Made by a program: the position numbers and the translations under genes. A stretch of DNA of 53,345 nt from Escherichia coli (lineage in GTDB: Bacteria > Pseudomonadota > Gammaproteobacteria > Enterobacterales > Enterobacteriaceae): assembly GCF_003334405.1 (NCBI RefSeq), contig NZ_QOWM01000021.1, one strand, 5' to 3'. Numbering within the stretch: position 1 is the first letter of the stretch; the number at the start of each line of letters is the position of its first letter. A model generated the notes under the pieces. It worked only from the letters and a program-made list of their open reading frames with translations. It made no database searches and was not told the DNA's origin. Shown piece by piece: positions 17,395 to 17,535 of this stretch.

Positions 17395-17411
17395 AGCGAA
17401 ATCTGTGCCAA
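17395..17411 (-). promoter_or_regulatory. sigma-54 promoter glnAp2
   Basis: Minus strand reads TTGGCACAGATTTCGCT (-24 GG / -12 GC spacing), about 85-100 bp upstream of the glnA ATG; matches the classical glnAp2 sequence. Confidence 0.75.
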
Positions 17412-17442
17412 CTTTTAAATTGCCCCTAAAAGGCGTTATCAT

Positions 17443-17535
17443 GCGCACCATCGTGCAAAAGGGCTGCACCACGATGTGAATGTTGCACCAATATAGTGCT
17501 TCAATGGAAACATTAAGCACCATGTTGGTGCAATG
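17443..17535 (-). promoter_or_regulatory. NtrC enhancer binding sites upstream of glnAp2
   Basis: Repeated TGCACC / GGTGCA dyads: gcgcaccatcgtgca, ctgcaccacgatgtg, ttgcaccaatatagtgc, aagcaccatgttggtgca; positioned about 100-140 bp upstream of the sigma-54 promoter. Confidence 0.7.

Follow-up and report, generated by a model that had tools for sequence, protein, structure and literature searches.

Sigma-54 promoter, NtrC sites and glnL operator in the glnALG control region of an Escherichia coli contig

The spacer upstream of glnA raises the question whether the sigma-54 promoter and the NtrC dyads that can be read in its sequence are indeed the elements controlling the glnALG operon, or whether they are chance motifs or parts of another structure. 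We analyzed this question in a stretch of 53,345 nucleotides from a single Escherichia coli contig, here referred to as the window. A preliminary description of this DNA had proposed a minus-strand sigma-54 promoter for glnA with an upstream NtrC enhancer and a further dyad close to glnL, and had taken these elements together to define the regulatory logic of glnALG. According to our analysis the region is almost certainly the glnALG control region with its textbook NtrC/sigma-54 regulation, comprising activation of glnAp2, repression of glnAp1 and glnLp and a governor. The system has long been known, with a full description available since the 1980s, and is conserved across enteric bacteria. 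Sequence, positions, spacing, gene identities and conservation across species were determined here, and binding, looping, activation and repression are taken from the literature. The case rests on position, clustering, conservation in 108 other Enterobacterales species and published binding data.

Genes and control elements of the locus

The segment from 15500 to 17800 was 100% identical to E. coli K-12 MG1655 and was found as a single copy in each of the 5,426 complete E. coli genomes (5,426/5,426). In the K-12 annotation the locus carries glnG, glnL and glnA on the minus strand, with typA divergently orientated on the plus strand. The gene identities were obtained by comparing the translations with the NCBIfam equivalogs for glutamate--ammonia ligase, NR(II) and NR(I), and all three were above the curated cut-offs (Table 1). 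Additionally, the product of glnG matched TIGR01818 with 826.7 bits. The cognate AAA+ activator of glnAp2 is encoded in the same operon by glnG (NtrC). The gene rpoN, which is present in the E. coli genome, was absent from the 53-kb window.

Table 1. Coordinates of the genes and the proposed control elements in the window
Feature	Position	Strand	Remarks
glnG (NtrC / NRI, sigma-54 enhancer-binding protein)	13146..14555	-	NF008176, 1051.7 bits (cut-off 620)
glnL (NtrB / NRII sensor kinase)	14567..15616	-	NCBIfam NF008293, 700.8 bits (cut-off 240)
NtrC operator at glnLp, TGCACTAAAATGGTGCA	15638..15654		1 mismatch; covers the expected start site
glnLp -10 hexamer TATAAT	15654..15659	-	perfect; no recognisable -35
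glnA Rho-independent terminator	15703..15729	-	stem 15729-15710 and T-run; terminator scan
glnA (glutamine synthetase) CDS	15902..17311	-	NCBIfam NF007006, 1048.6 bits (cut-off 845)
Predicted glnAp2 start	17384	-	motif centre plus 19 nt; leader of 73 nt to the glnA ATG
glnAp2 core, TTGGCACAGATTTCGCT	17395..17411	-	GG 17409-17408, GC 17397-17396, exactly 10 bp between them
NtrC site V	17421..17437		17 bp, 4 mismatches, centre -45; barely recognisable
NtrC site IV, TGCACGATGGTGCGCA	17442..17457		16-bp dyad, 3 mismatches, centre -65.5; low-affinity governor
NtrC site III, TTCACATCGTGGTGCA	17465..17480		16-bp dyad, 2 mismatches, centre -88.5; low-affinity governor
NtrC site II, AGCACTATATTGGTGCA	17484..17500		17-bp dyad, 2 mismatches, centre -108; high-affinity; overlaps the inferred glnAp1 start
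Rfam ES222 (RF02755)	17495-17602	+	135.3 bits (gathering score 62), full length; transcribed towards typA
Approximate glnAp1 (sigma-70) start	17499	-	placed solely by the published distance of 115 bp to glnAp2
NtrC site I, TGCACCAACATGGTGCT	17516..17532		17-bp dyad, 1 mismatch, centre -140; high-affinity; overlaps glnAp1
CRP site upstream of glnAp1, TGTGATCGCTTTCACG	17562..17577		1 mismatch to TGTGAN6TCACA
fdoI sigma-54 site, CTGGCGCGAATTCTGCA	40530-40546	-	inside the fdoI CDS 40064-40699 (-), sense, about 470 nt upstream of fdhE

The sigma-54 promoter that had been proposed for glnA was found in the 372-nt spacer between glnA and typA. It is intergenic, lies on the glnA strand at a plausible leader distance and has one mismatch to the 16-mer sigma-54 consensus (a TGGCAC-N5-TTGCW-like element). 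The exact 17-mer is listed in Table 1 of Bonocora 2015 (PMC4591121) as the in vivo sigma-54 ChIP-seq peak OS37 on the minus strand with a FAT value of 21. In the same table OS37 is located 73 nt from glnA and marked as experimentally confirmed in EcoCyc, and the start predicted at 17384 reproduces this distance. Furthermore, in vitro genomic SELEX has yielded peaks for both the RpoN-holoenzyme (47%) and NtrC (97%) at 4,056,244 (PMC8743547), a coordinate corresponding to about position 17498 of the window, on NtrC site II. Together with the complete identity to K-12 and the matching centres of the NtrC sites given below, these data bear out the interpretation of the region as promoter and enhancer of glnA.

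Upstream of glnAp1, a classical CRP site has been described which is essential for the activation of this promoter (PMC1865078), and a CRP site was found here as well. A scan for the sigma-70 consensus with two hexamers called neither glnAp1 nor glnLp. For glnAp1 this is consistent with a weak, CRP-dependent promoter; glnLp remained uncalled because it has no -35 with at least 4/6 matches. According to PMC9731577, both depend on sigma-70 and are repressed by NtrC, and glnLp is preceded by a moderate terminator. The single plus-strand match of the scan (TTTAAA-17-TATCAT at 17414-17442, 9/12) overlaps the upstream region of glnAp2 and points to typA, and is within the chance expectation for the region.

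Several further features were recorded elsewhere in the window. At 38429-38511 it is without a 438-bp segment that is located between fabY and yiiF in K-12 and carries yiiE, a CopG-family regulator. A repeat of approximately 83 bp flanking this segment is present in two copies in K-12 and in one copy in the window, which suggests that the segment was probably lost by deletion through repeat recombination. Across this position, strain 52F4 aligns with the window without interruption. Rfam matches at gathering level were obtained at 9166-9284, 10313-10566, 19492-19560, 44021-44079, 12810-12887 and 53158-53320; the families listed were Spot 42, CsrC, STnc370 (3' end of typA), the fdoG SECIS and three naRNA4/REP elements. 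A perfect CRP core palindrome (TGTGACAAATATCACA) is located at 44887-44902, 32 nt inside the annotated fdhD CDS and beside the divergent fdoG-fdhD spacer. A genomic SELEX peak of the RpoN-holoenzyme has also been reported in this spacer.

The dyads at glnA and glnL

The dyads were compared with the 17-bp consensus TGCACC-N5-GGTGCA, and their centres were counted from the predicted start at 17384 by a half-site map. Sites I to IV each contain one perfect TGCAC/GTGCA half-site. The centres of site I and site II are 32 bp apart, i.e. about 3 turns, which places both on the same helical face. In sites III and IV the spacer is one base shorter than in the canonical 17-bp dyad, and site V would not be called from its sequence. 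The centres determined in this way correspond to the published NtrC sites at -108 and -140, with glnAp1 located 115 bp upstream of glnAp2 (PMC1865078), and to the low-affinity sites at -89, -66 and -45 (PMC5159524). Sites 3 and 4 have been designated governor sites, and NtrC has been described as a negative regulator of glnLp (PMC3870243). The comparison with the published glnAp2 sites, proposed earlier as a check, thus came out in full agreement. The preliminary description had counted four TGCACC/GGTGCA dyads 100-140 bp upstream. Four dyads are indeed present, but only sites I and II, both canonical 17-bp dyads, lie within this range; sites III and IV are weaker 16-bp variants closer to the promoter.

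The stretch carrying these dyads also matches the small RNA family ES222 over its full length and above the gathering score. The match covers site I, half of site II and the CRP site on the strand opposite to glnA, and the dyad symmetries could therefore be read as stems of a structured RNA, instead of or besides protein-binding sites. In the consensus structure of the family, the NtrC half-sites and the CRP palindrome serve as stems, and a terminator-like hairpin is located on the plus strand at 17584-17606. However, ES222 was defined on E. coli, so that a score above its threshold is to be expected here. In a comparison of 51 diverged species, pairing was present in only 63% of the cells, and 20 of 36 pairs showed double-sided changes as compared with 15-22 in slid-partner controls, which is no excess. 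In these species there was no covariation support for the consensus structure. Its sole invariant stem, GTGC/GCAC, is made up of the NtrC half-sites and gives no covariation because these half-sites never vary. Additionally, the plus strand showed no convincing -10 ahead of 17495, and the literature searched contained no paper on ES222. The dyads hold a fixed distance to the sigma-54 promoter on the opposite strand, a constraint that an RNA gene would not require. We therefore consider it unlikely that the dyads serve as stems of ES222. Its structure rather seems to arise secondarily from the palindromes of protein-binding sites. A plus-strand transcript at 17495-17602, e.g. a typA leader or an antisense RNA, may exist and would leave the function of the dyads at the DNA level unaffected.

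At the other end of glnA, a 3'UTR of 197 nt (15705-15901, minus strand) ends at the Rho-independent terminator. The K-12-type 197-nt 3'UTR of glnA is the small RNA GlnZ (PMC9731577). No Rfam family matched the 3'UTR at 15705-15901, and a sub-threshold REP-like (naRNA4) match was observed within it at 15800-15860.

The dyad TGCACCATTTTAGTGCA that had been reported just upstream of glnL was recovered 22 nt upstream of the ATG at 15616. It shares its first T (15654) with the perfect TATAAT hexamer (15659-15654) and is therefore assigned as the operator through which the sigma-70 promoter glnLp is repressed. Given its distance from the ATG and the base shared with TATAAT, bound NtrC would cover glnLp from -10 to +1. 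We searched 500 nt after the glnA stop in 82 species for this dyad. A dyad with at most two mismatches was present in 78 of them, and three more carried a dyad with 3 mismatches fused to a -10-like hexamer. In 54 of the 59 scored species TATAAT or TATACT was fused to the dyad by the shared first T.

The dyad at glnL had previously been grouped with the enhancer. With 1 mismatch, it fits the consensus of the strong enhancer sites, and could thus be regarded as a third enhancer element which activates a promoter. Such a role is very improbable, since there is no sigma-54-like site between the dyad and glnL, the fusion with TATAAT is kept across the species scored, and glnLp is sigma-70-dependent and repressed by NtrC according to the literature (PMC3870243, PMC9731577). 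Both the fusion and the literature on glnLp instead argue for an operator serving repression.

Scores, chance expectation and conservation of glnAp2

A log-odds position weight matrix (PWM) for sigma-54 was built from 133 ChIP-seq motifs of Tables 1 and 2 of Bonocora 2015 (PMC4591121), minus the two sites within the window. With this matrix glnAp2 scored 15.9 bits, the training motifs ranging from 6.8 to 20.2 bits with a median of 14.4. The top score in the window was obtained for CTGGCGCGAATTCTGCA inside fdoI (17.4 bits), followed by glnAp2, and among the 106,658 positions scanned only these two exceeded 14 bits. Within the top 12 scores, glnAp2 was the only intergenic and correctly orientated site; the other 11 are located inside coding sequences.

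Two other ways of scoring were tried and rejected. Counting of consensus positions with a required GG-N10-GC core resulted in a four-way tie at 10/12 and gave no discrimination. A PWM based only on the 41 other intergenic promoters ranked glnAp2 ninth, because the C at position 14 of its motif (TCGC) is absent from these training sites; this matrix was regarded as over-fitted and the 133-site matrix was used instead.

The preliminary description had stated that a best sigma-54 site elsewhere would speak against the promoter, and formally such a site exists in fdoI. This does not refute glnAp2. Ranking first by PWM score is the wrong yardstick, as genuine sigma-54 sites with high scores occur frequently inside genes: most sigma-54 sites were found to be intragenic by Bonocora et al. 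2015 (PMC4591121). The site in fdoI is one of them, published as the intragenic ChIP site IS47 with a low occupancy (FAT 3 as compared with 21 for glnA; PMC4591121). It belongs to the same motif family as glnAp2 and has the higher PWM score. Unlike glnAp2, it lies within a coding sequence and has no NtrC dyads nearby.

The number of dyads was compared with chance expectation as well. Dyads with at most two mismatches were observed 3 times in 53 kb, with 3.07 expected, so that their count is not significant. All three are located in the two glnALG control regions, two at glnA and one at glnL. Dyads with at most one mismatch were observed twice as compared with 0.18 expected (P about 0.01), and two dyads with at most two mismatches fell within 60 bp of each other in 3 of 300 shuffles. 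Clustering of TGCAC/GTGCA pentamers was discarded as evidence, as four within 100 bp were no excess over the shuffle mean of 3.86. Over 53 kb, the counts of the motifs by themselves come close to what chance would give. It is by the position and conservation of the motifs, not by their number, that the observation exceeds chance.

Conservation was analyzed in glnA loci taken from GTDB species genomes by a degenerate pattern of glnA codons 3-18. Since the pattern was drawn from glnA codons only, the sampling was blind to the promoter. The 108 loci with at least 460 nt upstream were compared together with the window (109 sequences in total). The homologous sigma-54 motif (TTGGCA...GCT) ranked first by PWM among the sites upstream of glnA in all of them (109/109), and dyads at -140 and -108 (+-1) were present in 104 of 109, with leader lengths varying from 45 to 259 nt. 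Among 35 representatives below 88% identity, the invariant columns were the GCAC/GTGC half-sites, including those of site I, and TTGGCA..GC. Drift was seen in the same 35 sequences within the dyad spacers, between sites I and II and in the leader. Mean conservation was 0.75 for site III and 0.84 for site IV, and was modest for the CRP site (0.66).

The leader measures about 73-80 nt in most Enterobacteriaceae. Leaders of 130-259 nt were found in Yersinia loci (L033, L037, L049, L061, L098 and L104) and also in L044, L065, L085, L109, L113 and L120, and the spacing between enhancer and promoter was fixed in the loci with an expanded leader as well.

That TTGGCACAGATTTCGCT is a chance match or a non-productive sigma-54 site, with glnA driven by other promoters, is hardly conceivable: a score of at least 15.8 bits does occur 0.56 times per shuffled 53-kb window, and both the better site in fdoI and the prevalence of intragenic sites fit this reading, but only about 0.002 such scores are expected in the 372-nt spacer on the sense strand, the site ranks best in every sequence compared at a fixed distance from its enhancer, its ChIP occupancy clearly exceeds that of fdoI at an EcoCyc-confirmed promoter, sigma-54 overexpression up-regulates only five genes with an intergenic site upstream, glnA among them, and the published transcription data contradict it and have already refuted it.

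One property of the functional promoter glnAp2 deviates from the consensus. At motif position 14 (17398, minus strand) glnAp2 carries a C, resulting in TCGC and not TTGC. All 41 other intergenic ChIP-validated promoters have a T at this position (41/41), which leaves glnAp2 as the only non-T of 42, and T was also found in 127 of 134 other ChIP motifs, intergenic and intragenic. In the 109 Enterobacterales sequences position 14 was C in 92 and A in 17 and never T, although a change from C to T is a transition and the neighbouring spacer positions drift. We tentatively suggest that glnAp2 might carry a selectively maintained, sub-optimal -12 element in which the consensus T is selected against, a reading we hold to be possible but rather less than probable. 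If true, the C may, for example, weaken the repressive contact of Region I with the -12 fork junction, permitting very rapid initiation on activation. The -12 region of glnAp2 was reportedly mutagenised in the Gralla lab by Wang, Guo and Gralla in 1999, and the mechanism may already be partly known from this work. To our knowledge, the phylogenetic pattern of C or A and never T at position 14 of glnAp2 has not been described.

Proposed mechanism and comparison with known systems

Following the published work on the system, the elements would act together as follows. Sigma-54 RNA polymerase would bind the -24/-12 element of glnAp2 in a stable closed complex that does not start transcription unaided. 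Under nitrogen limitation NtrB would phosphorylate NtrC, and dimers of NtrC~P on the strong dyads at -140 and -108 would assemble into an ATPase hexamer. This hexamer would reach the polymerase by DNA looping and drive the formation of the open complex with ATP, leading to high transcription of glnA and read-through into glnLG. Both strong dyads also overlap glnAp1, a weak sigma-70 promoter activated by CRP, so that NtrC would at the same time shut this promoter off. The weak dyads at -89, -66 and -45 would be filled only at high NtrC~P and thereby limit the output as a governor. At glnLp, NtrC over the -10 to +1 region would block the polymerase, resulting in negative autoregulation of the basal glnLG expression.

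Measured against this scheme, the elements listed in the preliminary description are real, but they do not define the glnALG logic on their own, because glnAp1, the CRP site, the role of the governor sites and the glnA terminator with GlnZ had been omitted. The locus may serve as a calibration case, in which a bacterial enhancer-promoter pair was located to the base from sequence alone. It also illustrates that motif counts and rankings by the best PWM score are unreliable as tests at the 50-kb scale. Position, fixed spacing and conservation across species separate the functional glnAp2 from an intragenic site with a higher score.

The closest known system is the glnAp1/glnAp2 tandem promoter of E. 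coli K-12 with its NtrC sites I-V (Reitzer & Magasanik 1985/86, Ninfa et al. 1987 and Atkinson et al. 2002, as cited in PMC1865078, PMC5159524 and PMC3870243). Sequence, 17-mer, the 73-nt leader and the site centres are all the same, and the regulatory region of the window showed no difference. Likewise, no difference was detected between the window and glnLp as known from Ueno-Nishio et al. 1984 (cited in PMC9731577). This promoter of glnLG depends on sigma-70 and is repressed by NtrC. Its single dyad overlaps the -10 downstream of the glnA terminator, as found here.

Other NtrC-dependent sigma-54 promoters, namely those of glnK, glnHp2, nac and astC, share with glnAp2 the GG-N10-GC core and the upstream NtrC dyads. 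In contrast to these promoters, glnAp2 is IHF-independent according to PMC2709558, and its enhancer doubles as a sigma-70 promoter.
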